In this document: piece after piece, positions 1,941-31,335 of the stretch | Layout of the letters: each line of letters opens with the position of its first letter | Numbering within the stretch: position 1 is the first letter of the stretch | Assembly: GCF_900232105.1 (NCBI RefSeq) | Contig: NZ_LT934425.1 | Coordinates: 2,640,001-2,672,000 of the forward strand | Length of the DNA: 32,000 nt | Direction: 5' to 3' | From: Candidatus Kuenenia stuttgartensis | GTDB taxonomy: Bacteria; Planctomycetota; Brocadiia; Brocadiales; Brocadiaceae | Position numbers and translations under genes: made by a program | The notes under the pieces: model-generated | The model's database searches: none | What the model saw: only the letters and a program-made list of their open reading frames with translations | What the model was told of the DNA's origin: nothing

Positions 1941-2378
1941 CTACCCTCTTATGCACAAGACGGGGCAAGGGGCATTTCTTATCACATTCTCTGTCACGCT
2001 GCCAATAAACATATGAGAAATGCCCGTACGGCCGTGAGTACCCATAACTATAAGATCTACCCCCACATCGCGGGCTGCTTTTAAAATCTCTTCGAAAGGA
2101 ACACCCGCTCTCATCAGTATTTCAACATTTATACGATGCCTTATTTCTTCAGGAATACTGCTCCTCAATTTCTGTTCTATCTCTGCATCCGTTTCCGCAG
2201 TACGGTTTAACTCAGCGTCAAATTTAAGCCCGCCATAATCAGAGGTATGCTCTTCATGGACATGCATAAGATAAAGCACGGCAGAGTCCTTTATTGCCAA
2301 TTTCTCCGCATATGCAAGCGCATTCATGGAACAATCTGAATAATCTATGGGACAAAGAATTTTCTGATAGTGAATCAT
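1941..2378 (-). CDS. Universal stress protein (UspA family)
   Basis: 145 aa. The C-terminal nucleotide-binding motif G-x2-G-x9-G-S reads GTHGRTGISHMFIGSV. The start lies 16 nt downstream of the antiporter stop on the same strand. Confidence 0.85.
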   Translation of the reverse strand: MIHYQKILCPIDYSDCSMNALAYAEKLAIKDSAVLYLMHVHEEHTSDYGGLKFDAELNRTAETDAEIEQKLRSSIPEEIRHRINVEILMRAGVPFEEILKAARDVGVDLIVMGTHGRTGISHMFIGSVTENVIRNAPCPVLCIRG

Positions 2379-2394
2379 TTTTATCTCGGAGTAT

Positions 2395-5300: not shown

Positions 5301-5487
5301 TAGTTTGTGTCCCATTTTCTTCTACTGCTAAAGAAACCCTTTCTTTTTGAGTGTCGGCATGAATTGGTTGTGAATCGTTGGAAGGTTCCAAATGCTTCGC
5401 TTCCAACACTGGCGCACCTAACATATCGGTACAATACAGGGAGATGAATACTATCAGAAAAACCAGGCTGGATTTGTAGCTACTCAT
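2395..5487 (-). CDS. Cation:proton antiporter (CPA2/Kef-type Na_H_Exchanger membrane domain) with a signal peptide and a ~575-aa acidic repeat ectodomain
   Basis: 1030 aa. The N-terminus MSSYKSSLVFLIVFISLYCTDMLGAP looks like a signal peptide. Residues ~30-606 are E/D/T/P/H-rich with four 93-aa repeats. Residues 607-1030 (DNA 2395-3669) are polytopic and open with the typical exchanger start ...ILAVAIILIAAKIAEWLARRLRLPAVVGKLIVGMILGN. There is no C-terminal RCK/KTN domain. Confidence 0.85.
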   Translation of the reverse strand: MSSYKSSLVFLIVFISLYCTDMLGAPVLEAKHLEPSNDSQPIHADTQKERVSLAVEENGTQTIAGDNQPIQTPVIEHPSPTTVDMRDVGIQTPNSNSDVITTEKEEPYTSEHAENKYSQKIAHTNKDDRPIVHAEEALSDTTGRDNIVATPTPIPSVTPTGYGQSLVEEEKEIHTPSPEGELSQAIPIARRDPHATEEHPGEESSIKEVPPQHAITTESRSDTDILAKEALSDTTAQDNTIATPMPILPVTPTGHEQSLIEEEREIHTPSPEGELSQAIPIENETPHGTEEHPEEESSIKEVPPQHAITTGSRSDTDILAKEALSDTTAQDNTLVTPMPILPVTPTVHGQSLIEEEREIHTPSPEGELSQAIPIENETPHGTEEHPEEESSIKEVPPQHAITTGSRSDTDILAKEALSDTTAQDNTLVTPMPILPVTPTVHGQSLIEEEREIHTPSPEGELSQAIPIENETPHGTEEHTRDESSIGEVPPQHSILTENHRDTEEKSVLSDTPAPAPTPTYSAASVDVEESLITGEKEEPSPYGGSKSSPNASVERLPSTPLEGFLQGKEDRDTEPPRKDAGESTTVIASGERRIAAVKKGKDSGNGWEIWHKDPTHAVILAVAIILIAAKIAEWLARRLRLPAVVGKLIVGMILGNVITFTGWDFFDFLRTMPFVKMISYFGTLILLFTAGLNTDLRALLRVGTSSLLVCLGGIIAPAGLGLMVGHFLLPDISSGTKLLLAIVLCNSSTGLLLAVLSELKAINTLEGRVMAGATILTDIIVILTFGVVSGFVVKGGGSLVGMSLSFGVAITSLIISLIVIVKYGDKFGNFLTKRLTEGLNIPIVVILSLLLVFMFGSVGLHTVIGAFVAGLFLRNVKLRNSDDKEHRNVESFIRPFYMLLVPILFVRVGAQVELGSFFNLNALLLGLAITGAAVIGKMFCSVCPIEKGINRLAIGIGMATKMEGTLILAGLGRDMGMLSDTVFSSVIMAIVFTSIICPSLLRNILLKKGCSPEILPVTKRKKELEGAVLN
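3967..5082 (-). repeat. In-frame tandem repeat, 4 x 279 bp (93 aa), inside the antiporter ectodomain
   Basis: The unit is EALSDTTAQDNTLVTPMPILPVTPTVHGQSLIEEEREIHTPSPEGELSQAIPIENETPHGTEEHPEEESSIKEVPPQHAITTGSRSDTDILAK. Antisense shadow ORFs at 4127, 4406 and 4685 sit exactly 279 nt apart, and two of them have identical 74-aa translations. The outer copies are more diverged. Confidence 0.9.
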
Positions 5488-5939: not shown

Positions 5940-6378
5940 TTACCCCCTTATGCACAATACAGGACAAGGGGCGTTTCTTATCACCTTCTCTGCCACACTA
6001 CCAATAAACATATGGGAAATGCCCGTACGGCCGTGAGTACCCATAACTATAAGATCTATCCCAATATCTCTGGCTGCTTTTAAAATCCCTTCACAGGTGT
6101 CCCCCGCCCTCATCAATATTTCAATATTTATACAGCACCTTATTTCTTCTGGAATACTGCTAATAAATTTCTGTTCTATCTCTGCATCCGTTTCCTCGGT
6201 ACGGTTTAACTCCGTGTCAAATTTAAGCCCGCCATAATCAGAGGCATGTTCTTCCTTTACATAAATAAGATAAAGGCCTGGCAGTTTCCCTTGTTGCCAA
6301 TTTTGCCGCATATGCAAGCGCATTCATGGCACAATTTAAATAATCAACGGGACAAAGGATTTTCCGATAGTGAATCAT
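5940..6378 (-). pseudogene. Universal stress protein paralog with an apparent +1 frameshift
   Basis: The reverse strand from the ATG at 6378 gives MIHYRKILCPVDYLNCAMNALAYAAKLA..., parallel to USP1 MIHYQKILCPIDYSDCSMNALAYAEKLA. The rest (LYLIYVKEEHASDYGG...GTHGRTGISHMFIGSV) is in another frame (ORF 5940-6323). The span is 439 nt versus 438 nt in copy 1. The extra base lies within 6276-6295 (20 nt versus 19 nt in copy 1). Confidence 0.7.
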
Positions 6379-6380
6379 TT

Positions 6381-8879
6381 TTACCCCTGTGTATTCAGTT
6401 TAACGCAGCCCTTTTTAATTCCTTCTTCTGCTTTTGCAACAGAGACGATGTCTTGTGCGTCGCCCTTCTTCTGCAGGAATGCCCTTAAAAAATAAGGACA
6501 TATGATAGAGGTAAGCACGATTACCATAATAGCAGAGGAAAATACGGCGCTGTTAAATATTTCCATATCTCTGCCTATTCCTGCAAGTATTAGAGTCCCT
6601 TCCATCTTTATCGCCATACCTATGCCTATAGTCAAACGATTTACTCCGCGCTCAATCGGGCAAACGCTGCAAAACATCTTTCCTGCAATAGCGGCACCCG
6701 TTATAGCAAGTCCGAGGATCGCTGTATTTACATGTAAAAAACTCATTAGATCAACCTGCGCCCCCACTTTAACAAAAAGTATTGGCACTATAATCTTATA
6801 AAATGGCCTTATAAAAGATTCAATAGTACGATATTCTTCTTCGTCGAATTCGTCGGAATCACTTAGTTTTACATTCCGCAGGAATAACCCTGCAACAAAT
6901 GCCCCTATTACTGTATGAAGCCCAATTGTTCCAGTCATAAAGGCTAACAAGAGGCACAAAACTATTACAATAGGAATATTTAATCCCTCTTTAGCTCTTT
7001 TCGTTAAAAAGCTGCCGAATTTTTCGCTATATCTCAAAATAATTACTAACGCAATGGTAAGGAAAGAAATTGCGATACACACGCTAACTAAAATATGCAG
7101 GAAAGAATTCCCTTCACGAGCGACAAATCCGCTAACGAGGCCGAAGGATAAAATAACCATGATCTCTGTAAGAACGCCGGCACCGATGAGTATCCTTCCT
7201 TCCAGGGTATTCATAGCCTTTAATTCGCCTAAAATTGCCGTTAATAATCCCATTCCTGTACTGGCCAAAATAATTGCTAAAAGCATCTTTGTACCATTTG
7301 AGGCATCAGGAAGGAAGAAATGCCCTGCCACAAGACCCAGTCCGGCAGGGACGATAATACCGCCCATGCACACCAGTAAAGAGGAAGCCCCTGCCCGTAA
7401 TAACATCCTGATATCGGTATGAAGCCCTGCGGTAAAGAGAAGTATCAACGTTCCAAAATATGATATCATCTTTAAAAAGGGCATTGTCTTGAGAAATTCG
7501 AAAAAATCCCCTCCGGTAAAGATATAGATATTGCCTAACACTAGTCCTGCCAATAGATTACCCACTACCGAAGGCAACTGAACGTTTTTTGCCAGCAATT
7601 CTCCTATCTTGGCAGCAATAAGTATTATGGCGATGGCAAGGATCACACTATGGGATGGATCTTTGTGCAATATATCCCAGGCAGGCCTTGAAACTCCCTC
7701 TTCTTTCACAGTGTCTAAGCGGTGTTCTTCTGAAGCTATTCCTGTTGTTGATTCATCGGTATCCTTTGTTGGCAGTCCAGCATCTCTCTCTTCATTCACC
7801 TGAGAAGAACCTTCAATATGCGTAAACGGCAACAACTCCAAGGGGATAGTTGGCGCTCCGCGTTCTACATCATGCGATGGCTTATCCTTTTCTATCGGAA
7901 CCAGTGATTCTTCTGTGTGAGCGGATGCAGCAGGATATTCCGGAGTTGGAACAGGCATGGCGGAGATGGCGCCTTTTTCTTCAGCATCTCCCGGAGTCGC
8001 TGTAATTATAGCATGCTGCGGCTCAATTTCCTCTATCGATGACTCATCTCCGGGATGCTCTTCTGTTCCATGAGGAGTTTCGTTTTCAATAGGAATCGCC
8101 TGAGATAATTCTACTTCCGGAGATGGCGTGTGGATTTCCCTTTCTTCCTCAATCAAAGACTGCCCATGGACAGTGGGTGTAACAGGTAGAATCGGCATTG
8201 GTGTAACAAGTGTATTATCTTGTGCCGTGGTATCCGAAAGTGCCTCTTCTGCAAGAATATCAGTATCGCTGCGACTCTCTGTAGTGATGGCATGCTGTGG
8301 CGGAACCTCTTTTATCGATGATTCTTCTTCAAGATGCTCTTCTGTTGCATGCGGAGCGCTTATCTCAATAGGAATAGCCTGAGATAATTCTCCCTCTGGC
8401 GATGGTGTTGGTGTATGGATTTCCTTTTCTTTTTCAACCAAAGAGTGCCCATAGCCCGTAGGTATAACAGAGAGAATCGGTGTTGGCGTAGCCATGATAT
8501 TATCTTGCTCTGTGGTATCCGAAAGCGCCTCTTCTGTGGGAACAATCGGCCGGTCATCTTCATTGGGGTGTGCTATTTTCTGCGGATACTTATTTTCTTC
8601 ATGTTCAGAAATAATATAAGGTTCTTCTTTTTCTGTTATGATATTGTTGCTATTACTATCCGGCGTTTGAATGGGCTTATTGCCCCCTGCAGTAGTCTGT
8701 GTACCATTTTCTTCTACCGTTAAAGAATCTCTTTCTTTTTGAGTGTCGATATGGATCGATTGTGAATCATTGGAAGGTTCCAAATGCTTCGCTTCTAATT
8801 CCGGCGTACCTAACATAATAACACAGAACAGGGATATGAAAACTATAAGAAAAGCCAGGCTGGATTTGTAGCTACTCAT
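6381..8879 (-). CDS. Paralogous cation:proton antiporter (CPA2/Kef-type) with a signal peptide and a shorter acidic repeat ectodomain
   Basis: 832 aa with the same architecture as 2395-5487. It has the signal peptide MSSYKSSLAFLIVFISLFCVIMLG, an ectodomain with two repeat units, and a 432-aa membrane domain. By my hand count 71 of the first 100 aligned membrane-domain residues match copy 1. Confidence 0.85.
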   Translation of the reverse strand: MSSYKSSLAFLIVFISLFCVIMLGTPELEAKHLEPSNDSQSIHIDTQKERDSLTVEENGTQTTAGGNKPIQTPDSNSNNIITEKEEPYIISEHEENKYPQKIAHPNEDDRPIVPTEEALSDTTEQDNIMATPTPILSVIPTGYGHSLVEKEKEIHTPTPSPEGELSQAIPIEISAPHATEEHLEEESSIKEVPPQHAITTESRSDTDILAEEALSDTTAQDNTLVTPMPILPVTPTVHGQSLIEEEREIHTPSPEVELSQAIPIENETPHGTEEHPGDESSIEEIEPQHAIITATPGDAEEKGAISAMPVPTPEYPAASAHTEESLVPIEKDKPSHDVERGAPTIPLELLPFTHIEGSSQVNEERDAGLPTKDTDESTTGIASEEHRLDTVKEEGVSRPAWDILHKDPSHSVILAIAIILIAAKIGELLAKNVQLPSVVGNLLAGLVLGNIYIFTGGDFFEFLKTMPFLKMISYFGTLILLFTAGLHTDIRMLLRAGASSLLVCMGGIIVPAGLGLVAGHFFLPDASNGTKMLLAIILASTGMGLLTAILGELKAMNTLEGRILIGAGVLTEIMVILSFGLVSGFVAREGNSFLHILVSVCIAISFLTIALVIILRYSEKFGSFLTKRAKEGLNIPIVIVLCLLLAFMTGTIGLHTVIGAFVAGLFLRNVKLSDSDEFDEEEYRTIESFIRPFYKIIVPILFVKVGAQVDLMSFLHVNTAILGLAITGAAIAGKMFCSVCPIERGVNRLTIGIGMAIKMEGTLILAGIGRDMEIFNSAVFSSAIMVIVLTSIICPYFLRAFLQKKGDAQDIVSVAKAEEGIKKGCVKLNTQG
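7968..8531 (-). repeat. In-frame tandem repeat, 2 units (95 + 93 aa), homologous to the 279-bp repeat of the paralog
   Basis: Unit 2 (EALSDTTAQDNTLVTPMPILPVTPTVHGQSLIEEEREIHTPSPEVELSQAIPIENETPHGTEEHP...) matches unit 3 of the paralog at 64 of 65 residues. The antisense ORF at 8128 shares its first 40 aa with those at 4127 and 4406. Confidence 0.85.
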
Positions 8880-11871: not shown

Positions 11872-12366
11872 ATGGCTGAAACAAATATACAATCCGCTGA
11901 GAATGAAGCATTATATCTTTCTAAGACAGAAGATGTTTTAGAAAAGTATAAACACGGCAGGGGCTCGCTCATTCCCATCTTGCAGACGATACAGACGGCA
12001 TATGGTTATTTGCCGGAGAAGGTTGTTGATTTTGTTTCGGAAAGATTGAATATAAGCGTGAATGAGATAATCGGTGTTGCGACATTTTACGCCCAGTTTC
12101 ATATGAGACCACGCGGCAGGCATATCATTAAGGCATGCAGCGGAACTGCATGTCATGTAAAAGGCGCAAAGCAAATTATTGAAAAACTGGGCAAAAAACT
12201 GGACATTCCTGTAGGGGAGACAACAAAAGATACAATGTTTACCCTCGAAGAGGTGGCTTGTTTGGGCGCCTGTTCGCTTGCGCCGGTTATAATGGTGGAT
12301 GAAGATGTTTATGGCCAACTGTCGCATAATACCGTTGGGAATATAATAGACGAGATAAAGGGTTAG
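11872..12366 (+). CDS. nuoE: NADH:quinone oxidoreductase subunit E ([2Fe-2S] N1a)
   Basis: 164 aa with Cys pattern ACSGTACHVKGA ... ACLGACSLAPV (C-x4-C ... C-x3-C). Confidence 0.92.
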   Translation: MAETNIQSAENEALYLSKTEDVLEKYKHGRGSLIPILQTIQTAYGYLPEKVVDFVSERLNISVNEIIGVATFYAQFHMRPRGRHIIKACSGTACHVKGAKQIIEKLGKKLDIPVGETTKDTMFTLEEVACLGACSLAPVIMVDEDVYGQLSHNTVGNIIDEIKG

Positions 12367-12416
12367 AGCTTGTGGGTAGTTTCTTTGCATTTTTTGCAGT
12401 ACATTTAATTCCCAAA

Positions 12417-12633
12417 TTCCAAGCTCAATTTATACACTACAAATTATAAAGAGCAATAAAGTAAGATAAATCAATGTCTTTTCGACTAATTGAATTCTTT
12501 AAACATGTTATGTATAGTGTATATTGTATACACTACACGAATAGTTTATGTTTTTATTAAAGGAAGCGAAAACTATTGAATATACAGGCTTTCCGCATAT
12601 ATATTCAATGTAGTGTATAAAATTAGCTTCGAA
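12417..12633. repeat. Nested inverted-repeat element (MITE-like, or two abutting ~105-bp units) in the nuoE-nuoF gap
   Basis: The outer arms are TTCCAAGCTCAATTTATACACTACA (12417-12441) and TGTAGTGTATAAAATTAGCTTCGAA (12609-12633). A central palindrome GTATAGTGTATA-TTG-TATACACTACAC (12512-12538) reuses the TATACACTACA core, giving four copies (two per orientation). Confidence 0.55.
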
Positions 12634-12652
12634 GTCAGGTTAATTGTGAAAT

Positions 12653-12710
12653 CCGAAGTTGCCAGTCTACAGACTGCCGACTGGAGACTGCCGGTTGCAG
12701 GTTGCAGATT
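12653..12710 (-). repeat. Degenerate heptamer tandem array (AATCTGC-like, reverse orientation)
   Basis: On the + strand: CCGAAGT|TGCCAGT|CTACAGA|CTGCCGA|CTGGAGA|CTGCCGG|TTGCAGG|TTGCAGA. The reverse complement reads AATCTGC|AACCTGC|AACCGGC|AGTCTCC|AGTCGGC|AGTCTGT.... Confidence 0.5.
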
Positions 12711-12759
12711 TTCTTATTTGTTTGGTTCTGGCTTGTCCTTGTTGAGGAGTTTCTGCTAA

Positions 12760-14610
12760 ATGGTTCTTGACGAAAGGTCTGAAGGTTCAAAAGTGGATGC
12801 AATGCCCGCCAGGGCCAGGATAATTGTTGGCATGGGAACATGTGGCATTGGCGCTGGCGCGAGGGGGGTATTAAAAAGTATCGAAAGCGAACTTGCCAAA
12901 CAACAGATTCAGGCGGATATTGTTCATACAGGGTGCATTGGTTTATGTTCCTATGAAGTACTTGTTGATATAATAATCCCTGGCCGTACCAGGGTAACGT
13001 ATAAAAATGTGAAGCCGCAGACCGTCCCTCTGTTATTGGAGGAACACGTAAGAAAAGGGGAAATTGTTAAAAACCATGTATTGTCTCAAATGGTTGCGGA
13101 AGAGGGGTGCGAAGAGCCATATCCGCTAGTTCCTTTTTTTGATGAACTGATCATTAATAGACCGCAGCGCAAGCAGATTTTGAGGAATTGCGGCTACATT
13201 GACCCTGATAGCATTGAGGAATATATTGCCCGCGGCGGGTATGAAGCCCTTAAAAAAGTACTAAAGACAATGAGTCCGGAGCAGGTGATTGAGGAAGTGT
13301 CTAAGTCAGGTTTGAGAGGAAGAGGGGGCGGTGGGTTTTCTACCGGCAATAAGTGGGCGTCGTGTGCAAAATATTCTACCGATGAAAAGTTTGTTATCTG
13401 TAATGCTGACGAGGGCGACCCTGGTGCATTTATGGACAGAAGTCTACTGGAGGGTGACCCGCACGCAGTCCTTGAGGGCATGATTATTGGCGGATACGCC
13501 ATTGGCGCAACCAGTGGTTACATATATATCCGTGCGGAATATCCTCTGGCGGTTAGAAGGATTAAGCATACTATTGAGCAGGCAGGAAAATATGGGTTTT
13601 TGGGTGAGAATATTTTGGGCAGCGGATACAGCTTAAATATTTACATAAAGGAAGGCGCAGGTGCTTTTGTCTGCGGAGAGTCCACGGCATTACAATATTC
13701 AATAGAAGGCAAGCGGGGAATGCCGCGCACAAGGCCCCCTCAATCTGTAGAGGCGGGACTGTGGGATAAGCCAACTGTGTTAAATAATGTGGAAACCTTT
13801 GCGAATGTCCCTCTTGTAATGAATAAGGGGGCAGGTTGGTATGCTCAGATGGGAACAGACAAAAGCAAAGGTACGAAGATATTTTCATTAACGGGGAAAA
13901 TAAAACATCCGGGCCTTGTAGAAGTTCCCATGGGCACAACTATCCGGCAAATCGTATTTGATATAGGAGGGGGGATTCCCAGGAAAAGACGGTTTAAAGC
14001 CGTTCAGATTGGAGGGCCTTCCGGCGGTTGTTTGCCTGAATCATTGCTGGATTTTCCTATCGACTACGAATCATTATTGGAAATTGGCGCGATGATGGGT
14101 TCAGGTAGTTTTGTAGTGGTGGATGACGGCACCTGTATGGTGGAAATGGCTCGCTTTTTTATGGATTTTTGCGCACGGGAATCATGCGGAAAATGTCCTC
14201 CATGCAGAATAGGCACAACCCTTATGCTTGATATACTTACGCGGATTACTCAGGGAATGGGTGAAGAGGGCGATATTGCAATGCTTGAAGAGATGTGCGG
14301 AGAGGTGAAGACCATGTCCCTTTGCGGTCTTGGGCAATCAGCGCCCAATCCAATCAAGTCCACTTTGCGGTATTTTAAAGACGAATATATCGCTCACATC
14401 AGAGACAAAATTTGCCCCACCGCCACATGTACGGCGTTGCACAGGTATGAGGTTATCCCCGATAAATGCACTAAATGCCAGGTCTGTATACGTAATTGTC
14501 CTGTCAAAGCAATCAGTGGCAGCAAGACGGAAGTTGCTTTTATTGATAAAGCAAAGTGTATTAAATGTAATGTGTGTTACGAAAAATGTAATTTCCTGGC
14601 AATAAAATGA
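12760..14610 (+). CDS. nuoF: NADH:quinone oxidoreductase subunit F, extended form (extra N-terminal thioredoxin-like ferredoxin-type domain and C-terminal 2x[4Fe-4S] ferredoxin domain)
   Basis: 616 aa. The core has GLRGRGGGGFSTGNKW (FMN/NADH) and ESCGKCPPCRIG (N3). The C-terminus has CTKCQVCIRNCP and CIKCNVCYEKC. The ~110-aa N-terminal extension contains GMGTCGIGAG ... TGCIGLCSYE. GAGGAG lies 10 nt before the ATG at 12760. An alternative ATG at 12802 is possible. Confidence 0.9.
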   Translation: MVLDERSEGSKVDAMPARARIIVGMGTCGIGAGARGVLKSIESELAKQQIQADIVHTGCIGLCSYEVLVDIIIPGRTRVTYKNVKPQTVPLLLEEHVRKGEIVKNHVLSQMVAEEGCEEPYPLVPFFDELIINRPQRKQILRNCGYIDPDSIEEYIARGGYEALKKVLKTMSPEQVIEEVSKSGLRGRGGGGFSTGNKWASCAKYSTDEKFVICNADEGDPGAFMDRSLLEGDPHAVLEGMIIGGYAIGATSGYIYIRAEYPLAVRRIKHTIEQAGKYGFLGENILGSGYSLNIYIKEGAGAFVCGESTALQYSIEGKRGMPRTRPPQSVEAGLWDKPTVLNNVETFANVPLVMNKGAGWYAQMGTDKSKGTKIFSLTGKIKHPGLVEVPMGTTIRQIVFDIGGGIPRKRRFKAVQIGGPSGGCLPESLLDFPIDYESLLEIGAMMGSGSFVVVDDGTCMVEMARFFMDFCARESCGKCPPCRIGTTLMLDILTRITQGMGEEGDIAMLEEMCGEVKTMSLCGLGQSAPNPIKSTLRYFKDEYIAHIRDKICPTATCTALHRYEVIPDKCTKCQVCIRNCPVKAISGSKTEVAFIDKAKCIKCNVCYEKCNFLAIK

Positions 14611-17279
14611 AAATTATCCATCTGACAATAGATGATAAATCAATCGTAGCGCCTGAAGGCACAAATATTTTTCAGGCGGCATTGGACAATAATATTTATA
14701 TTCCAGGCCTGTGCTACCATCCAAAACTATCCCAGTTTGGCGGATGCAGGCTTTGTTATGTTGAAGTTACTGAAAGGAATCAAACAAGACGCCGTTTCGC
14801 CTGTGCACATCCGGTATCCGAGGGGATGAGCGTAAAAGTAAATACAGCAGAAGTGAATCGCCATAGAAAAGCGGTAATGGAATACCTGCTTGCTCATCAT
14901 GAACTTGCCTGCCCCACCTGTAATAAATCCGGAGAATGCGGACTGCAAAATATTGCCCATGAACAGGAATCCCCTCTGGGAAGATTCAAGACGGCAAGGA
15001 TGTCTGCTCCGGTAATTCGGGATAATCCGGTTTTGGAATTAAACAGAAACCGGTGCGTTTTGTGCGGACGCTGTGTAAACGCCTGCAAGGAAATAGAGGG
15101 TGTTGGCGCCATAGACTTCCAGAACCGCGGGTTCAGAACGGTTATTGGAACCGCCTTTGACAGGCCATTGGATTGCAGTTTTTGCGGAGGGTGTCTGGCT
15201 GTGTGCCCGACAGGTGCTTGGCAGGACAGAACGCTGAAGTTCAGCGGCAGGTCGTGGGAATTCGAGGGTTTTCAGACAATTTGCCCATATTGTTCCGTTG
15301 GCTGCACAATTGTTTTAAATACAAAAAATGGAAGCGTCAGGCGCGTGCTTTCCGAAGATAAACTGGGAATAAATGAGGGAAATCTTTGTGTGAAGGGAAG
15401 GTTCGGGCATGAATTTATTCATTCCCCTGAACGAATAACCACCCCATTGATAAAAAAGAATGGTGAATTTCAGGCTGTCCGGTGGGAAGAGGCGATTGGG
15501 TTTGTGTCGGAGACGCTTGGACGAATTATTGAAAAACATGGCAGCAATACGATAGGCGGCATCGGTTCTGAAAAATGTACCAACGAGGAAGATTACCTTT
15601 TTCAGAAATTTTGCAGAACGGTACTGAGGACAAATTGTATTGACAACATAGCAAATATGAGGGCGCCATTCTTAAATAGCGTTTTATATAAATCAGTTGA
15701 AAGCGGGTTTGCAGCCGCTCCATTGAAGGAAATCGAAAATGCCGGCACCCTGTTCTTTTTTGGCGTGGATATTACCGAGGCACTTCCCGTCATAGGATGC
15801 ATGGCAAGGAAGGCAATAAAATTGAATAACGCAAATGTGGTGATCGCCAACCCGCGCACTATCATTTTTAAAAATACCGCCCCAAATGAAGCGCGACTAA
15901 ACTATTCTTTGGGAAGTCAGCATATATTGCTCAACGCAATAATCAAAGTTATTGTTGAGGATAAACTTGTTGATATTAAAAAGTTAGAGTCTTCGGCAAG
16001 TAATCTTAGCGATTTACGTTTAGCGGTAGAAAATCTTAGTTTAATTGATGTTGAACGATTGACGGGAGTTTCGCCTGAAATGATACGCAACGCTGCCGGA
16101 TTGCTGGCGAAACCGGGCAACTGTTGCATTGTTTACGGCAAAGACGTTATTGAAGACCCGCTTGGTGCGGATACCATAAAAACGCTGTTAGACCTTTGCA
16201 CATTGATTGATATTTCCAATCGTAGTGAAATTCATCCTGGCAGGGTGTCTCTTTTCTGTGCAAGATATCATAATAATTCGCAGGGGGTAAACGATATGGG
16301 AGTCGTTCCGGAATCATTACCCGGTTATCTTGATATAAACGATGCATCGAATAAGGAGAGAATTGAAGAATTGTGGGGCGTAAAATTTTCTGAAGATCTT
16401 TTATCAAAAAAACCCTTAAATCTGATTGACGCCGCAAAAAATGGGAGCATAAAATCGCTTTACGTAATGGGCGCAGATCCTGTCACGGAGTATCCGAACG
16501 GAAAAGAGATAAGAGATAGTTTTAAGAATATGGAATTTATTGTCGTTCAGGATTCATTTATGACGGAAACAGCAAAACAGGCAGATGTGATCTTCCCCTC
16601 TGCTACATTTGCCGAAAAAGAAGGTACTTATACCAGTATGGGATTGATCACGCAGCGATTAAACAAGGCTGTTTCACCTGTGGGTGAATCGAAGGCTGAT
16701 TGGAAAATTATCTGCGATGTATCAGAAAAAATGGGACATGCTTTCCCCTATGCGAATGTAACGGAAATTGTGGATGAAATAAAAAAGGCAGCCCCTCTTT
16801 ATTCATCCTTAAGTTATGACCGCCTGAAGCGAAAGGAATTTCACTGGCCTTCATCGTTTCCTGAAAAAAAAGAATCAAATACCTGCACGTTTTTTGCGAT
16901 TCAGGGTAAATTCCTGAAAGTGAATGTAGAAAAAGAATTTCCTTTCATCGTAATGACAGGTGCAAGCCTGAATCACCATGGCGCTTATTCAGCAAAATCA
17001 AGGGCATTGGTTTCGATTGCCCCTGAATGTTGTGTAGAAATAAACGAAAAAGACGCAAAGGATATGCAGATTAAAAATGGGGATATGGTTATGGTTGAGT
17101 CGCGGGTGGGAAAATTAAAACTGAGAGCAAGGGTAACAAAGAAATCTCCTCCGGGCATAGTTTTTGTGCCAGATGCATATGCAGACTCACCTGTTAATAT
17201 CTTGATATCTCAGGCATATACACCGGTGAAGATTTATACTGTTTCTGATTTGGTGTTACGCCTGAGCCAAGGTGAATAA
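14607..17279 (+). CDS. nuoG: NADH:quinone oxidoreductase subunit G
   Basis: 890 aa. It has a 2Fe-2S region CYHPKLSQFGGCRLC, then HHELACPTCNKSGEC, CVLCGRCVNAC and CSFCGGCLAVCP, then a molybdopterin-oxidoreductase-like domain starting CPYCSVGC. It has an ATGA overlap with nuoF. Confidence 0.93.
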   Translation: MKIIHLTIDDKSIVAPEGTNIFQAALDNNIYIPGLCYHPKLSQFGGCRLCYVEVTERNQTRRRFACAHPVSEGMSVKVNTAEVNRHRKAVMEYLLAHHELACPTCNKSGECGLQNIAHEQESPLGRFKTARMSAPVIRDNPVLELNRNRCVLCGRCVNACKEIEGVGAIDFQNRGFRTVIGTAFDRPLDCSFCGGCLAVCPTGAWQDRTLKFSGRSWEFEGFQTICPYCSVGCTIVLNTKNGSVRRVLSEDKLGINEGNLCVKGRFGHEFIHSPERITTPLIKKNGEFQAVRWEEAIGFVSETLGRIIEKHGSNTIGGIGSEKCTNEEDYLFQKFCRTVLRTNCIDNIANMRAPFLNSVLYKSVESGFAAAPLKEIENAGTLFFFGVDITEALPVIGCMARKAIKLNNANVVIANPRTIIFKNTAPNEARLNYSLGSQHILLNAIIKVIVEDKLVDIKKLESSASNLSDLRLAVENLSLIDVERLTGVSPEMIRNAAGLLAKPGNCCIVYGKDVIEDPLGADTIKTLLDLCTLIDISNRSEIHPGRVSLFCARYHNNSQGVNDMGVVPESLPGYLDINDASNKERIEELWGVKFSEDLLSKKPLNLIDAAKNGSIKSLYVMGADPVTEYPNGKEIRDSFKNMEFIVVQDSFMTETAKQADVIFPSATFAEKEGTYTSMGLITQRLNKAVSPVGESKADWKIICDVSEKMGHAFPYANVTEIVDEIKKAAPLYSSLSYDRLKRKEFHWPSSFPEKKESNTCTFFAIQGKFLKVNVEKEFPFIVMTGASLNHHGAYSAKSRALVSIAPECCVEINEKDAKDMQIKNGDMVMVESRVGKLKLRARVTKKSPPGIVFVPDAYADSPVNILISQAYTPVKIYTVSDLVLRLSQGE

Positions 17280-17599: not shown

Positions 17600-17734
17600 G
17601 TAACACTTTAGTTTTTTGAAAAATTCCAATAATCGCAGTGTAGGGGCGAAGCATTTGCTGTAAATTGTCATAAATGCGTTCATGCCCAAACGAGCAAATG
17701 CTTCGCCCCTGCTTTTTCAAAAAACTAAAGTGTT
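17600..17734. mobile_element. MITE-like nested hairpin element, family 1
   Basis: The outer arms AACACTTTAGTTTTTTGAAAAA (17602-17623) and TTTTTCAAAAAACTAAAGTGTT (17713-17734) are 22/22 complementary. The inner arms AGGGGCGAAGCATTTGCT (17642-17659) and AGCAAATGCTTCGCCCCT (17693-17710) are 18/18 complementary. Related copies lie at 63-273, 31252-31335 and 31900-32000. Confidence 0.6.
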
Positions 17735-17766
17735 CATAATTATCAGGCAAGAAAAGAGATAAAAAT

Positions 17767-18105
17767 ATGGGAAAAACTAAAATTACTAATGAACAGAAGC
17801 CACAATTTGTTCAAGGTATGCCTTTGCTTAATATTTATATTATCAAAGATAACGGAAAATATATGGTTAAATGTCCGGAACTGGACATAGTAACCGAAAT
17901 GGATACCGCAGAACAAGCCTTAGATGCTATTTTAGAAATAATAAGAGAATATTCAGAAGATTACAGGAATCGTGAAGAAATATTTATCAAAAGCCCTAAT
18001 AGGTTCCATCATAAGCCTTATGTCGATAAGGTCCTTGAATGTAAAGATAAATGGGAACTATGCGAACTGATAACGGTTAAATATGGCCATATATACATAC
18101 GATGA
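17767..18105 (+). CDS. hicB: HicB-like antitoxin (N-terminal HicB/UPF0150-type domain)
   Basis: 112 aa. The segment YMVKCPELDIVTEMDTAEQALDAILEIIREY fits the HicB-like pattern (..cPeL.g..t.G.T.eEAl.n..eai..). It lies directly upstream of hicA. I see no clear RHH/HTH C-terminal domain. Confidence 0.55.
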   Translation: MGKTKITNEQKPQFVQGMPLLNIYIIKDNGKYMVKCPELDIVTEMDTAEQALDAILEIIREYSEDYRNREEIFIKSPNRFHHKPYVDKVLECKDKWELCELITVKYGHIYIR

Positions 18106-18313
18106 TATGCGGTTTGTACTTAAGAGATTGGGTTTTAATAAGATTAGAAGCCAAAAACATGAGACATGGGAAAGAATTACGGATGCGGGGACCGTATTAC
18201 AGGTAAGATTAAGCCACAAAGGTAAACGAGATATATCTAAAGGGACCTTTAATGAGATGTTAAAACAAGCAGGTATTGATAAAAAAATGTTCAGAGATTT
18301 ACTAAAAAAATAA
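18083..18313 (+). CDS. hicA: HicA-family mRNA interferase toxin
   Basis: The sequence ...MRFVLKRLGFNKIRSQKHETWERITDAGTVLQVRLSHKGKRDISKGTFNEMLKQAGIDKKMF fits the HicA/YcfA pattern. The ATG at 18107, one nt after the hicB stop, is an equally plausible start. Confidence 0.7.
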   Translation: MAIYTYDDMRFVLKRLGFNKIRSQKHETWERITDAGTVLQVRLSHKGKRDISKGTFNEMLKQAGIDKKMFRDLLKK

Positions 18314-18411
18314 TACAAAAAGGAAAATATACCATACTAAAGAAAATATGCATGAATATTGTGCCTATTTTCTGTGACGGCAGGTTTCTCCTGTTGCCTG
18401 AGCGTGAGAGA

Positions 18412-18435
18412 CAGTCAGGAGGAAACTCCTGACTG
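18412..18435 (+). promoter_or_regulatory. Perfect 10-bp stem / GAAA tetraloop hairpin in the leader of the desulforedoxin-nuoH unit
   Basis: CAGTCAGGAG-GAAA-CTCCTGACTG. No T-run follows, so it is not a classical terminator. Two further, mutually exclusive hairpins follow at 18455-18479 and 18475-18494. Confidence 0.35.
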
Positions 18436-18519
18436 CATGGGGGTATAAAATGTGGGGTTCAAATTACAAATTTGAATCCGCGATAATCCGGATTTAAATG
18501 CAGTATTGAGGTTTTATAC

Positions 18520-18807
18520 ATGGCGAAAAAAGGACAAACGTTTTTCTGCGAGATATGCAAGCAAAAGGTTGTTGTTGTTGACGGAGGTTTTGGGGTGCTT
18601 GTATGTTGCGGCAAGGAAATGACCCTGGTTGGGAAGAAAGATATGATGTCTGTCTGGACGTCTGCGCATAAGTCTCCTGAGGAGGGAAGCGGGGTGCACT
18701 TTATCTGCGGAATATGCGGACAAAAGATAAATGTGATTTACGAAACGACTGGGATATTGGAATGTTGCGGACAAAGAATGATGATGGAAGAGGTTTCAAA
18801 TGGATAG
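18520..18807 (+). CDS. Tandem desulforedoxin-domain protein (two Cys4 rubredoxin-like metal sites)
   Basis: 95 aa with two copies of the desulforedoxin signature F/Y-x-C-x2-C-x-Q-x-V/I-x-V...G-x-L-x-CCG-x2-M: FFCEICKQKVVVVDGGFGVLVCCGKEM and FICGICGQKINVIYETTGILECCGQRM. For comparison, D. gigas Dx from memory is [27 protein letters not shown]. GAGG lies 9 nt before the ATG. The stop overlaps the nuoH ATG by 8 nt. Confidence 0.8.
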   Translation: MAKKGQTFFCEICKQKVVVVDGGFGVLVCCGKEMTLVGKKDMMSVWTSAHKSPEEGSGVHFICGICGQKINVIYETTGILECCGQRMMMEEVSNG

Positions 18808-19798
18808 AAAGCTACTCATTTTTCTTATCATTGCATCCGTTAAGATTTTCATTGTCTTTAATGTAGTGCAACTAATGATTGTCTCAATGATCTGGTTTGA
18901 ACGAAAGATATTGGCGCACATGCAGGTGCGTCTCGGCCCGATGCGCGTAGGATTCCATGGTATACTGCAGCCTATTGCAGACGGCATAAAGCTTTTGTTT
19001 AAAGAAGATATTATTCCCGCGAAGGCGGAAAAAATACTTTTTGTGCTGGCGCCGGTAATGACTTTGATCCCCGCGTTGTGTACGTTTGCCGTTATTCCCT
19101 TTGGAGGGGTAATCAATGTATTTGGACATCGTATAGATATGGTCATTACCGATATTAATGTGGGAATCCTTTATATTTTAGCGGTTTCTTCAATGGGTAT
19201 TTATGGCATTGTTATGGCAGGCTGGTCATCGAATAATAAATATTCGTTGTTAGGGGGGATACGTTCCTCCGCTCAGATGATAAGTTACGAGTTAACTATA
19301 GGCCTTTCTCTCATTGGGGTTATCATGATGACCGGATCGTTGAGTATGGTGGATATTGTGAATGCCCAATCAAAAATGTGGAATCTTGTTTGGCAGCCTT
19401 TAGGTTTTCTCATCTATTTGATAAGCGCTATAGCAGAAGTAAACCGGTGCCCCTTTGATATCCCGGAGGCGGAGACAGAGCTTGTGGCAGGTTACCATAC
19501 GGAATACAGCAGTATGAAGTTTTCCATGTTTTTTATGGCGGAATACGCAAATATGATAACAGTGTCTGCCATTGCGGTAACATTTTTTCTCGGCGGCTGG
19601 CATGGGCCGTTTTTGCCGGGGGTTGTTTGGTTTATGCTGAAATTGTCCTTCTGCCTTTTTGGTTTTATCTGGCTGAGGGCAACATTCCCAAGGCTTCGTT
19701 ATGACCAGTTGATGCATTTTGGGTGGAAATTTCTGCTGCCACTTTCATTGTTTAATATTTTAGTAACAGGACTTATCATGGTTATTCGAGGACTATGA
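18800..19798 (+). CDS. nuoH: NADH:quinone oxidoreductase subunit H
   Basis: 332 aa, polytopic, with WFERKILAHMQVRLGPMRVGFHGILQPIADGIKL. GAAGAGG lies upstream of the ATG at 18800. Confidence 0.93.
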   Translation: MDRKLLIFLIIASVKIFIVFNVVQLMIVSMIWFERKILAHMQVRLGPMRVGFHGILQPIADGIKLLFKEDIIPAKAEKILFVLAPVMTLIPALCTFAVIPFGGVINVFGHRIDMVITDINVGILYILAVSSMGIYGIVMAGWSSNNKYSLLGGIRSSAQMISYELTIGLSLIGVIMMTGSLSMVDIVNAQSKMWNLVWQPLGFLIYLISAIAEVNRCPFDIPEAETELVAGYHTEYSSMKFSMFFMAEYANMITVSAIAVTFFLGGWHGPFLPGVVWFMLKLSFCLFGFIWLRATFPRLRYDQLMHFGWKFLLPLSLFNILVTGLIMVIRGL

Positions 19799-22982: not shown

Positions 22983-23027
22983 GGTTTGTGGCAACAATTT
23001 CGTGCCGTGAAAAATTAAAAATGCCTG

Positions 23028-23091
23028 CTCCAAAGCTTCGGTTTGGGGCACAAGCCAATGTTTGACGGAAATGTTTACGCTGAATAGTTAG
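23028..23091. repeat. Remnant / solo terminus of MITE family 2
   Basis: GTTTACGCTGAATAGTTA (23073-23090) matches the reverse complement of the left end of the 9034-9160 MITE at 18/18. An upstream CCAAA...TTTGG hairpin (23030-23046) resembles the MITE internal hairpin. I found no second terminus. Confidence 0.45.
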
Positions 23092-23163
23092 TGTGTAAGG
23101 CGGATTAGGGGTACATTTTGATTGTTAAACCCGTTCTTATACAAAAAAAAGGAAACAGAGAAA

Positions 23164-23414
23164 ATGAAATCTATATATAAAATTACCATTCCAAAACGTA
23201 TCACCGAAGGTGAAGAGCTTATAGTGATTCGCCGCCAGGAATATGATTAGCTAGTAAAACGTCTTGCTGAAGTTAAGGATGCTTTGGCTAAGATAAGGAA
23301 CAGGTACAGAAGCTTGTCTTGCTAATCCCGGAAGAGAGTATTAAAGAATACAAAAATGCTGCCCAAATAAGGAAGGCGTATATGAAGGCTACGAAAGATT
23401 TTCATCCGGCATAA
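23164..23414 (+). pseudogene. Decayed antitoxin gene (partner of the RelE/ParE-like toxin)
   Basis: The frame reads MKSIYKITIPKRITEGEELIVIRRQEYD-TAG(23248)-LVKRLAEVKDALAKI... It then shifts frame to ...KEQVQKLVLLIPEESIKEYKNAAQIRKAYMKATKDFHPA-TAA (23412-23414). That is one nonsense codon plus one frameshift. Confidence 0.55.
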
Positions 23415-23417
23415 TAA

Positions 23418-23675
23418 ATGTTAATTCATAAAACTAAAGATTTTATTGAAGAATTAGCAGGATTGCCCGCTGAGATAGGAAAATTTTATAGAAAACAGTA
23501 GGCTATTTTCAAGAAAAATTGGCTCGATCAAAGATTGCATACAAAAAGGCTTAAGGAGTTTTCTGGAGTTTATTCTTTCTGGATTACCATCCGTTATCGG
23601 GCATTATTTTATTTCAGAGATGCAGAAGCAGTATTCTTTTCCGTAGGTCATTGAAAGGATATTTATAATGAGTAA
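23418..23675 (+). pseudogene. Decayed RelE/ParE-family toxin gene
   Basis: The frame reads MLIHKTKDFIEELAGLPAEIGKFYRKQ-TAG(23499)-AIFKKNWLDQRLHTKRLKEFSGVYSFWITIRYRALFYFRDAEAVFFSVGH-TGA(23652)-KDIYNE-TAA. The H.K.L....GVYSFRI...YRALF.......V.F..VGH.KDIY pattern is typical of RelE/ParE toxins. Confidence 0.65.
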
Positions 23676-23714
23676 ATCTAAAAAGGGTTCGTATAATAAT
23701 ACCGGAATGTTCAA

Positions 23715-25298: not shown

Positions 25299-25371
25299 CA
25301 GCGGGGCAACTTATCAATAAATTGAGGCAAACTACCCCATTTGCTTCCTATACTTTCGGCGAATACTGTAT

Positions 25372-25413
25372 AATCGGCAACCGGCAATCTGCAGTTTGCA
25401 AATTACAGACGAC
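25372..25413 (+). repeat. Degenerate heptamer tandem array (AATCTGC-like)
   Basis: AATCGGC|AACCGGC|AATCTGC|AGTTTGC|AAATTAC|AGACGAC in the nuoM-nuoN gap. Confidence 0.55.
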
Positions 25414-25460
25414 AGAAATTATTACAAAAACCTTTTTTTATGAATTAAGGTGAGTTTTCC

Positions 25461-27294: not shown

Positions 27295-27951
27295 TTAAAT
27301 TTCAGCAAGAGCCTGATGGAAGATATCCTGGGTAATTTTCTGTGATTGTCTGATGGAAGCGTTAATCAGGCAGGCGGTGGAAATGGCGTTGATTTGCCTG
27401 GGGATGCCGGCAGAGAACTCATGGATCAGGTCTTTGACATCTGAGTCAAAGATTTTATCAGATGCGCCGGAAGATTTCAGATGGAAGTCTATGTATGCAG
27501 CGGTTTGAGTTTTAGTAAGGGGATGGATGTGGTAATGTACCGGGATGCGTTGTGCGAAGTCGGCATGGATGTCTCTTTTGAGGATATATTTGAGGTGTTC
27601 CTGCCCCGAGAGGATGATTTTGAGATGAGTGGAAGAATCAAGCGGAGAGCTGACAAGGAGTCTGAGGTCTGTGATGGCGTCGGTTTTCAGGAGATGAGCC
27701 TCGTCGATAACGATAATGGGAGTGAGATTTGAGAGCAAGGATTTATCCATAATTTGGAGGAAGAGCCGGTCTTTGGTGTGTTTTGGTATTTCACCGGGCT
27801 GTGAGACGATTAAGGAGAGAAGGCTGGATGATTTTAGGTGGGTAAAATGGAGGTAGATGGGGAGAAACAGGTTTTGGGGGATTTGTGAGAGGAAGAGTTT
27901 GAGGAGTGTGGATTTTCCGACTCCCGTCTGTCCGTAGAGGACCGCGATAAC
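27295..27951 (-). pseudogene. 5'-truncated ExeA/TniB-like AAA+ ATPase (transposition-helper type)
   Basis: The frame stays open upstream of the track ORF: VIAVLYGQTGVGKSTLLKLF... (Walker A), ...PIIVIDEAHLL (Walker B), ...GIPRQINAISTACLINA (ExeA-like tail). There is no start codon. The first ~30-40 expected residues are missing, and the break coincides with a MITE family-2 terminus. Confidence 0.65.
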
Positions 27952-27964
27952 ACTGAATAGTTAT
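27948..27964. repeat. Solo terminus of MITE family 2
   Basis: TAACACTGAATAGTTAT versus the MITE right end TTACACTGAATAGTTAC (15 of 17). It sits exactly at the truncation point of the AAA ATPase. Confidence 0.45.
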
Positions 27965-27982
27965 AATCATCTTTTTGAGTAA

Positions 27983-28344
27983 ATACAAACTGTATTACAA
28001 GAGGAGAAGAGCCGATCGCAGATAGAGATATATTTTAAAGTATTAAAGAGCGGTTGCAAGATAGAAGAGCGCCAATTGGAGACAGCGGAGCGTATCAAGC
28101 CGTGTATTGCTCTTTATATGATAGTGGCATGGGGGGTATGTTTGTTACCATGTTTGTAAGGGAATGCCCGGATTTGCCTTGTACAGCACTTTTAGAGGAT
28201 GATGAATGGAAACCCGTGTATATGATTGCCAAAAACGAAGCTCCACCCGAAACCCCGCTATCGCTCGGAGGCTTTACCGTAATGGTACCAAGTCTGGAAG
28301 GATACTTAAATCGCAAATGCGATGGCCCACCAGTAAATTTTTAA
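27983..28344 (+). pseudogene. C-terminal fragment of an IS4/Tn5-like DDE transposase, frameshifted
   Basis: One frame gives ...RSQIEIYFKVLKSGCKIEERQLETAERIKPCIALYMIVAWG. After the G6 run (28131-28136) the next frame gives FVTMFVRECPDLPCTALLEDDEWKPVYMIAKNEAPPETP...SLEGYLNRKCDGPP. This matches the remembered IS4-family tail (RW.IE.FFK.LKSGC.IE..QL...ERL...LALY.IVAWR......R..PDLPC....E.EWK..Y...........PP.L......IA.LGGYL.RK.DGPPG). The N-terminal ~300 aa are absent. Confidence 0.65.
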
Positions 28345-31251: not shown

Positions 31252-31335
31252 AGTGCAGGGGCGAAGCATTTGCTGTAAATTGTCATAAATGCATTTATAC
31301 CCAAACGTGTAAATGCTTCGTCCCTGCTTTTGCAC
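31252..31335. repeat. Solo copy of the family-1 inner hairpin module
   Basis: CAGGGGCGAAGCATTTGCTGTAAATTGTCATAAATGC... closely matches 17641-17676. The right arm GTAAATGCTTCGTCCCTG (31309-31326) has two mismatches. Confidence 0.55.

Follow-up and report, generated by a model that had tools for sequence, protein, structure and literature searches.

The protein described here belongs with the desulforedoxins (Dx), and we know of no work that has settled the function of desulforedoxin itself. D. gigas desulforedoxin (1DXG/1CFW) is a 36-residue chain which forms a non-covalent homodimer. A Dx-type Fe(Cys)4 domain also makes up the N-terminal centre I of desulfoferrodoxin, i.e., the 2Fe superoxide reductase, and in the desulforubrerythrin of C. 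jejuni, rubrerythrin carries a fused Dx domain whose centre is tied to peroxide reduction; Dx-like centres typically sit near 0 mV (PMC7482061). Here we analyse a 32,000-nt stretch of the Ca. Kuenenia stuttgartiensis genome (contig NZ_LT934425.1, positions 2,640,001 to 2,672,000; hereafter, the window), which contains an ATG-start open reading frame (ORF) of 95 amino acids (aa) at 18520..18807 on the + strand, encoding a tandem Dx-domain protein that we call DxDx. Its gene is a conserved cistron of the Complex I (nuo) operon in anammox bacteria, and in one Scalindua clade it lies in a cluster of reductase and rubrerythrin genes. Our favoured explanation, to which we assign a probability of about 0.5, is that DxDx is a two-centre Fe(Cys)4 carrier in rubredoxin's role, reduced by the NADH module of Complex I or by a reductase and feeding rubrerythrin-type enzymes.

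DxDx shares with D. gigas desulforedoxin its family (PF06397), its fold and the spacing of its cysteines. However, it is not a classical desulforedoxin: two diverged copies are fused in a single chain by a conserved linker of ~20 residues, making an obligate asymmetric pair, and the gene belongs to a Complex I operon. Desulfoferrodoxin has a superoxide-reductase domain, whereas DxDx has none, and the superoxide reductases (SORs) encoded near DxDx in Scalindua are separate, neelaredoxin-type proteins. In desulforubrerythrin the Dx domain is part of the enzyme, whereas DxDx is a free two-domain protein, mostly encoded with nuo genes; the likeness is that DxDx and rubrerythrin genes are neighbours in Scalindua. 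Two-domain rubredoxins exist, e.g., AlkG, and DxDx takes the rubredoxin position after a homologue of NADH:rubredoxin oxidoreductase (NROR) in Scalindua, near diiron enzymes, a likeness which comes from gene context only. Rubredoxin differs in fold and in ligand motif, and real rubredoxins coexist with DxDx.

The original prediction, made from the sequence letters without database searches, described the ORF as carrying two desulforedoxin-type Cys4 motifs, and this identity is confirmed. The cysteines form two C-x2-C-x15-C-C motifs (C10, C13, C29 and C30; C63, C66, C82 and C83), both with the spacing seen in an alignment to D. gigas desulforedoxin. Two profiles each match in two stretches: Pfam PF06397 (Desulfoferrod_N) at 52.1 bits against a cut-off of 23 (E 4.8e-14), and TIGR00319 at 40.4 bits against a cut-off of 36.05. 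The Pfam scan gave no match to the superoxide-reductase domain PF01880, and TIGR00320 reached 37.5 bits, below its cut-off of 146.9, over residues 1-40 only. Rubredoxin families were not among the Pfam matches, and the second ligand pair is CC, not CxxC. No signal peptide or membrane segment is visible in the sequence. The product is 100% identical to the database protein KsCSTR_45590, named Ca. Kuenenia stuttgartiensis, and a published expression table lists the gene as KSMBR1_2477 (kustc0833), a "hypothetical protein" directly 5' of nuoH_1 (PMC7438415).

Dx domain 1, seen in the Dx alignment and the conserved columns, covers residues 2-37 (18523..18630, +), with ligand codons for Cys10, Cys13, Cys29 and Cys30 at 18547, 18556, 18604 and 18607. 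The linker, residues 38-57 (18631..18690, +), holds the motif G-M-M-x-x-W-T-x-x-H-x-x-P. Dx domain 2, seen in the second PF06397 stretch and the conserved columns, covers residues 58-92 (18691..18795, +), with codons for Cys63, Cys66, Cys82 and Cys83 at 18706, 18715, 18763 and 18766. By sequence, the nearest solved structure is D. gigas desulforedoxin (1cfw_A/1dxg), which aligns over residues 2-35 with 44% identity; the desulfoferrodoxin structures 1vzg/2ji1 match residues 3-40.

An AlphaFold2 model built on 22 homologues is compact, with a mean pLDDT (predicted local distance difference test) of 82 and a pTM (predicted template-modelling score) of 0.73. Foldseek placed one domain of this model on 1dxg_A over 36 residues with a TM (template-modelling) score of 0.97, normalised to the 36-residue Dx chain, and a root-mean-square deviation of 0.5 Å; its output is silent on which of the two domains matched. 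All Foldseek matches in the PDB are single Dx or desulfoferrodoxin chains. The linker is modelled at pLDDT 74-78 with a predicted short helix at 42-46. It is plausible from the model that the two domains pack as a single-chain pseudo-dimer. DxDx probably binds iron rather than zinc, and it is presumably redox-active.

A search of 5.8 billion proteins returned 67 homologues of 58-107 aa, nearly all of 88-95 aa, and those that carry an organism name are all from anammox bacteria or unclassified planctomycetes. Among 1.84 billion representatives at 50% identity, the family is one cluster plus one fragment, and the next matches are only 30-40% identical. In a 22-sequence alignment, six of the eight cysteines are invariant, and C10 and C13 are nearly so because sequence P0066 lacks the N-terminal part. 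The GFGVLVCCG stretch of domain 1 is conserved (all of F24 to G31 but V26 are invariant, G23 and V26 nearly so), as is E-T-T-G-I-L-E-C-C-G of domain 2 (T77 and I79 nearly invariant, the others invariant). The linker is unexpectedly conserved, with M42, W46, T47 and P53 invariant in all 22 sequences.

Compared with other Kuenenia species, DxDx has a dN/dS (ratio of nonsynonymous to synonymous substitution rates) of 0.10-0.24. Between Kuenenia and Scalindua, DxDx is ~65% identical, NuoH ~70% and NuoG ~55%. In K. stuttgartiensis MBR1, DxDx transcripts reach 207 and 173 RPKM (reads per kilobase per million mapped reads) under ammonium- and nitrite-limited growth, respectively, compared with 227/119 for nuoG and 130/79 for nuoH (PMC7438415). 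DxDx is therefore a real, constrained and transcribed gene, given its homologues, invariant cysteines, dN/dS and RPKM; its conservation, dN/dS and RPKM rule out a spurious ORF.

The order in the window is nuoA-B-C-D-E-F-G, a HicB/HicA-type gene pair, DxDx and nuoH-I-J-K-L-M-N, and this cluster (KSMBR1_2468-2485) has been treated as the organism's Complex I (PMC7438415). The nuoG-like subunit, in the BfuA-type position, was assigned by Pfam at 14607..17279 (+) and adjoins DxDx on its 5' side in other anammox genomes, while nuoH (KSMBR1_2478; 18800..19798, +; PF00146, E 6.6e-132) is the first membrane-arm gene, 3' of DxDx. A pattern scan of one genome per GTDB species found 54 loci with a DxDx gene, all from Brocadiales: Kuenenia, Brocadia, Jettenia, Loosdrechtia, Wunengus, Scalindua, other Scalinduaceae and unnamed lineages. 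Synteny with nuoH is widespread, i.e., the order nuoF-nuoG-DxDx-nuoH-nuoI holds in approximately 47 of the 54 species-level loci and in further contigs, and it spans both Brocadiaceae and Scalinduaceae. The median gap is 6 nt from the nuoG stop to the Dx start (60 nt or less in 41 of 54) and again 6 nt from the Dx stop to the nuoH start, so DxDx is an ordinary internal cistron of the operon.

An 8-nt overlap between the Dx stop and the nuoH start had been reported for the window and is present: ATGGATAG at 18800..18807 (+) holds the nuoH ATG (18800) and the DxDx stop TAG (18805-18807). The same overlap occurs at four loci (L007, L008, L011 and L034), and overlaps of 4 or 1 nt occur at eight more. 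Shine-Dalgarno-like GAGG motifs lie at 18508-18511 for DxDx and, inside the DxDx coding sequence, at 18790-18793 for nuoH. The proposed translational coupling to nuoH is thus supported by overlap or abutment in many genomes (12 loci overlap and 15 have a gap of exactly 0 nt), but it is not universal, as 11 of the 54 loci have gaps of at least 50 nt.

The Complex I encoded beside DxDx is of a distinctive type. The genes nuoE, nuoF and nuoG span 11872-17279, and nuoF (12760..14610, +; 616 aa) belongs to the Bfu (HydB) type: its product is extended at the N-terminus and has two C-terminal Fer4 stretches that make up a 2x[4Fe-4S] domain. NuoF and NuoE align over their full lengths to the B and C chains, respectively, of 7t2r, 8a6t, 9n5u and 7q4v, solved structures of bifurcating Bfu enzymes that include hydrogenases and Nfn; for NuoF (residues 18-615) the scores to 7t2r_B, 9n5u_B and 7q4v_B are 705-747 bits, compared with 412 bits to Thermus Nqo1 over the core only (151-550). 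NuoE is closest to HydC/BfuC. The best PDB match of NuoG is the formate dehydrogenase FdsA, over its full length, with the catalytic Cys-His replaced by Arg-Ala; this replacement rules out the idea of NuoG as an active formate dehydrogenase in need of a special carrier.

NuoF falls in Nuo-Bfu clade 39, and Nuo-Bfu has been predicted for Planctomycetes and Nitrospirae as a complex of 14 subunits, without reference to a Dx gene (Schut et al. 2022, PMC9304861). The window operon matches this type by its BfuB-type NuoF, with an N-terminal [2Fe-2S]-type domain beside the C-terminal 2x[4Fe-4S], and its BfuC-type NuoE, with bifurcating activity a prediction. The same work describes "Rub-Bfu", i.e., BfuBC modules adjoining rubrerythrin and proposed to be peroxide reductases (PMC9304861). 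Rub-Bfu is a proposed NADH module feeding rubrerythrin, as we propose here, but with the rubrerythrin gene adjacent and no Dx carrier. NuoF is a candidate electron source for DxDx, and it is plausible that the extra Fe-S clusters of NuoF and NuoE offer a side port for a small redox protein.

Outside the nuo operon, the DxDx gene was found at seven loci (L005, L006, L052 and L054-L057), in S. japonica (L063) and at L069. The relocated cluster has the order neelaredoxin-type SOR, NROR homologue, DxDx and two rubrerythrins. The NROR homologue consists of Pyr_redox_2 and Rubredoxin_C domains, with a C-terminal CxxC...CxxC zinc-ribbon/rubredoxin-like domain, and its named close homologues (at least 66% identity) are nearly all from Scalindua or unclassified planctomycetes. 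Scalindua NROR clusters also encode a single Dx of 39-46 aa, a free rubredoxin or a 77-aa rubredoxin-Dx fusion; such small Fe(Cys)4 modules lie at 4358-4591 of L069, 6543-6776 and 7305-7424 of L061, 7961-8086 of L063 and 5701-5952 of L005. The SORs of these clusters (4298-4735 of L063 and 1645-2073 of L069) carry twin-arginine (Tat) signal peptides with RRTFLK.

The simplest reading of this distribution is that DxDx relocated once, from the nuo operon to the reductase/rubrerythrin operon. A neighbour-joining tree places the relocated copies in a single clade inside the nuo-linked copies of Scalinduaceae; the linker motif is kept in them; and none of the assemblies behind the 54 loci yielded both a nuo-linked and a reductase-linked copy. 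There is also a pair of contigs from JGI sample 3300041080: a 104-kb contig (L068) has a Bfu-type nuoF, nuoG, 62 nt and nuoH with no Dx gene, and a 71-kb contig (L069) has SOR-NROR-DxDx-(rubredoxin-Dx)-rubrerythrin-rubrerythrin-Dx.

Because one marine lineage has the gene beside peroxide-detoxifying genes, DxDx is most likely a rubredoxin-like carrier and not a structural part of the proton pump. As we envisage it, DxDx would be a soluble cytoplasmic protein with two Dx-type Fe(Cys)4 centres per chain, acting as a rubredoxin-like one-electron carrier. In most anammox bacteria, NADH-derived electrons would reach it via the Bfu-type NuoEFG module of Complex I, and in the Scalindua clade with the relocated gene the adjacent NROR homologue would reduce it. 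DxDx would then pass electrons to peroxide- and oxygen-scavenging enzymes, rubrerythrin first and possibly flavodiiron proteins. We infer the identity of both donor and acceptor from gene context. An unrelated 80-aa tandem Dx lies 3 nt 5' of a rubrerythrin gene. Rubrerythrin and flavodiiron proteins are encoded in all anammox genomes, and no Nror was found in K. stuttgartiensis (PMC10156729).

K. stuttgartiensis has three rubredoxin genes, of which KSMBR1_2919 is transcribed at ~300 RPKM (PMC7438415). These genes rule out the notion that Kuenenia has no rubredoxin and that DxDx fills the gap.

Several points weigh against the carrier explanation. Contigs L068 and L069 come from the same sample, which does not prove that they come from the same genome, and incomplete metagenome-assembled genomes could hide second copies. 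The Tat signals mean that the Scalindua SORs are probably exported, so they would not be direct partners of a cytoplasmic DxDx. With its own rubredoxin KSMBR1_2919 expressed, K. stuttgartiensis does not need DxDx to fill a rubredoxin gap. The fixed nuoG/nuoH junction in both anammox families, together with translational coupling, would equally suit a stoichiometric bound subunit, and a simple carrier role leaves the conserved linker (M42, W46, T47 and P53) unexplained. Iron binding, redox activity and partners are, moreover, all read from sequence and context.

The strongest alternative takes up the last-named junction and linker: DxDx could be an anammox-specific accessory (fifteenth) subunit of Complex I, seated on the peripheral arm near NuoG as a structural metal module or an extra redox centre. 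Small metal-binding accessory subunits of Complex I are known, e.g., the mitochondrial zinc subunit NDUFS6/NUMM and Thermus Nqo15, and these share with DxDx the idea of an additional small Cys-rich or metal-related peripheral-arm protein, but no detectable homology. The fixed position, the median 6-nt gaps and the frequent stop/start overlaps favour stoichiometric co-synthesis, and the conserved linker suggests a docking surface. Across loci, DxDx identity (57-82%) falls within the range of core subunits (NuoG 52-94%, NuoH 68-98%), and its transcript level is close to those of the nuo genes.

We nevertheless consider this alternative unlikely. DxDx does not follow the pattern of an obligate subunit, i.e., presence wherever the complex is encoded: the Scalinduaceae nuo operon on L068 has a Bfu-type NuoF and an intact nuoG-nuoH junction and no DxDx gene, whereas that sample and no fewer than eight other loci have the gene in an NROR/rubrerythrin cluster. 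Dx domains have no known role other than as redox centres, and the published Nuo-Bfu has 14 subunits (PMC9304861). DxDx also responds more weakly to ammonium limitation than its neighbours, with an RPKM ratio of 1.2x versus 1.5-3.2x for nuoD-G (values from PMC7438415). The same relocated copies and the DxDx-free operon on L068 make a role specific to the membrane arm, one of the ideas raised in the original prediction, unlikely.

Subunit and carrier could also be combined. DxDx might be docked on the Bfu-type NADH module as a dedicated fifteenth gene product, so that electrons could leave Complex I by a second exit of high potential. The complex would also serve as an NADH:desulforedoxin reductase for rubrerythrin and flavodiiron scavenging, thereby protecting its own Fe-S clusters, and in one Scalindua clade the job would have been handed to a separate NROR, the gene moving along. 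We put this forward tentatively and rate its chances as low.

Less probable still is that DxDx is dedicated to the Bfu-type N-module as its electron donor or acceptor when Complex I bifurcates or confurcates electrons, replacing ferredoxin or working beside it. Three things would suit such a partner: the homology of NuoF and NuoE to BfuB and BfuC over their full lengths, the use by Bfu enzymes of a small protein as third substrate (PMC9304861), and the place of DxDx directly after the BfuA equivalent. However, known Dx-like centres lie near 0 mV or higher, compared with roughly -500 mV for the ferredoxin on which Bfu enzymes act, and the other Nuo-Bfu operons (Geobacter, Deferribacteres and Nitrospirae) are 14-gene clusters (PMC9304861). 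No close DxDx homologue appears outside anammox bacteria among the 50%-identity representatives, and the relocated copies adjoin NROR rather than Bfu genes.

We are similarly doubtful that DxDx delivers iron or zinc to the Fe-S-rich peripheral arm as a chaperone, or helps to assemble that arm, acting transiently and outside the electron path. Several PDB entries share the Dx sequence, some of them holding other metals, and Dx Cys4 sites accept several metals in vitro; the gene also stands at the boundary between peripheral-arm and membrane-arm genes. Against this, there is no precedent for a Dx domain in such a role, the move next to NROR and rubrerythrin fits redox use, and transcription is high and constitutive, on a par with structural genes. 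A redox or oxygen sensor, or small regulator of nuoH-N expression or activity, is very improbable: DxDx is a small Cys-rich protein, and in K. stuttgartiensis it has a possible internal promoter with a palindrome on its 5' side, but the chain is two Dx domains and a linker with no DNA-binding or signalling domain, and in most genomes the gene is an internal cistron 2-6 nt from nuoG with no upstream promoter region. Of the speculative roles listed in the original prediction (electron carrier, metal chaperone or assembly factor, and sensor), the evidence thus favours the accessory electron carrier.

The original prediction also called the arrangement unfamiliar, which is correct as far as the literature goes. 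Our literature search found no paper that describes DxDx, none that mentions kustc0833 or KSMBR1_2477 and none that combines Kuenenia with desulforedoxin, so the literature searched holds no report of a fused desulforedoxin conserved in the Complex I operon of anammox bacteria. Tandem Dx domains as such are not unique, however: sequence databases contain distantly related 73-95-aa tandems, proteins with four Dx domains and a Dx-Dx-SOR fusion beyond anammox bacteria, and the same search found no paper on tandem or multi-Dx proteins outside anammox. These other proteins (P0069, P0091, P0070 and P0076) include four Dx-like repeats ending in "RIGYYFQGGG", the Dx-Dx-SOR fusion and a Dx-Dx pair on a 315-aa protein. 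Among the genomic contexts of four non-anammox tandem Dx genes, one is beside rubrerythrin, and three are short contigs or uninformative.

A large part of the world's nitrogen loss is due to anammox bacteria. They also serve in wastewater treatment, where their sensitivity to oxygen limits practical use. DxDx, which is conserved, expressed and unannotated inside their only Complex I operon, is a candidate link between respiration and oxidative-stress defence, within the wider question of how electrons pass between NADH, quinone, ferredoxin and the enzymes that detoxify oxygen. It would also be the first "desulforedoxin dimer" on a single natural chain to have a physiological context. If it is a bound subunit or partner of the Bfu-type Complex I, it also bears on the workings of predicted bifurcating respiratory complexes.

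In the window, nuoG and DxDx are separated by 1240 nt owing to a local insertion restricted to K. stuttgartiensis-like genomes. DxDx had been proposed to head the nuoH-N half of the locus, but it does so only in these genomes and by virtue of the insertion; natively, it directly follows nuoG. The gap is 925-1006 nt at loci L007 and L008, 45 nt in K. hertensis (L011) and 2-6 nt in most genera. The insertion (17637..18313, +) comprises a repeat element, a HicB-like antitoxin gene (17767-18105, +; PF12910) and a HicA toxin gene (18083-18313, +; PF07927) which overlaps the HicB-like gene by 23 nt. Transcripts of the inserted genes stand at 52/19 RPKM for HicB and 108/77 for HicA (PMC7438415). The repeat element (17637-17719, +; repeat family D11/D12) is an 83-nt hairpin with the internal inverted repeat GGGGCGAAGCATTTGC...GCAAATGCTTCGCCCC; a second copy, 90% identical, lies at 31252-31334 and a partial copy at 126-159. 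It looks REP/MITE-like (repetitive extragenic palindrome or miniature inverted-repeat transposable element).

A consensus scan marked a possible promoter at 18458..18511 (+), made up of TTCAAA (18458), 18 nt and GATAAT (to 18487), followed by the GAGG at 18508-18511. The palindrome TTCAAATT-ACA-AATTTGAA overlies this promoter-like stretch at 18458-18476 (+). The scan found 8 sites versus 5.8 expected, i.e., no excess over shuffles. The last ~55 nt 5' of the DxDx ATG are conserved at L007 and L008, in genomes with the same insertion, and the climb in RPKM from HicB (52) and HicA (108) to DxDx (207) is consistent with an internal promoter. It is thus possible that such a promoter drives DxDx, nuoH and the genes that follow in K. 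stuttgartiensis. Also in this region, 85 nt 5' of the Dx start, is a perfect 10-bp stem with a GAAA loop (18412-18435); the 51-nt stretch around it (18400-18450) folds with a dG of -20 kcal/mol and a z of -5.1 versus shuffles. The stem is not a canonical terminator because no T-run follows it, and an Rfam scan of the whole window gave no family.

Elsewhere in the nuo operon there are unusually long non-coding gaps between nuoE and nuoF (393 nt, 12367-12759), nuoL and nuoM (732 nt, 22983-23714) and nuoM and nuoN (162 nt, 25299-25460). None of these gaps contains an ORF of at least 50 aa, the longest being 42-48 aa. In Jettenia and Loosdrechtia, nuoE runs up to or into nuoF, and 45-217 nt lie between nuoL and nuoM. 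At 27295-28344, 3' of nuoN, are mobile-element remnants: the - strand carries an AAA_22 fragment, and the dimerisation domain of Tn5 transposase is weakly matched (E 3.7e-4). Near the start of the window, a universal-stress-protein gene and a long Na+/H+ exchanger gene are duplicated in tandem on the - strand (1941-5487 and 5940-8879), and each of the two exchangers carries 279-nt (93-aa) tandem repeats in its N-terminal half.

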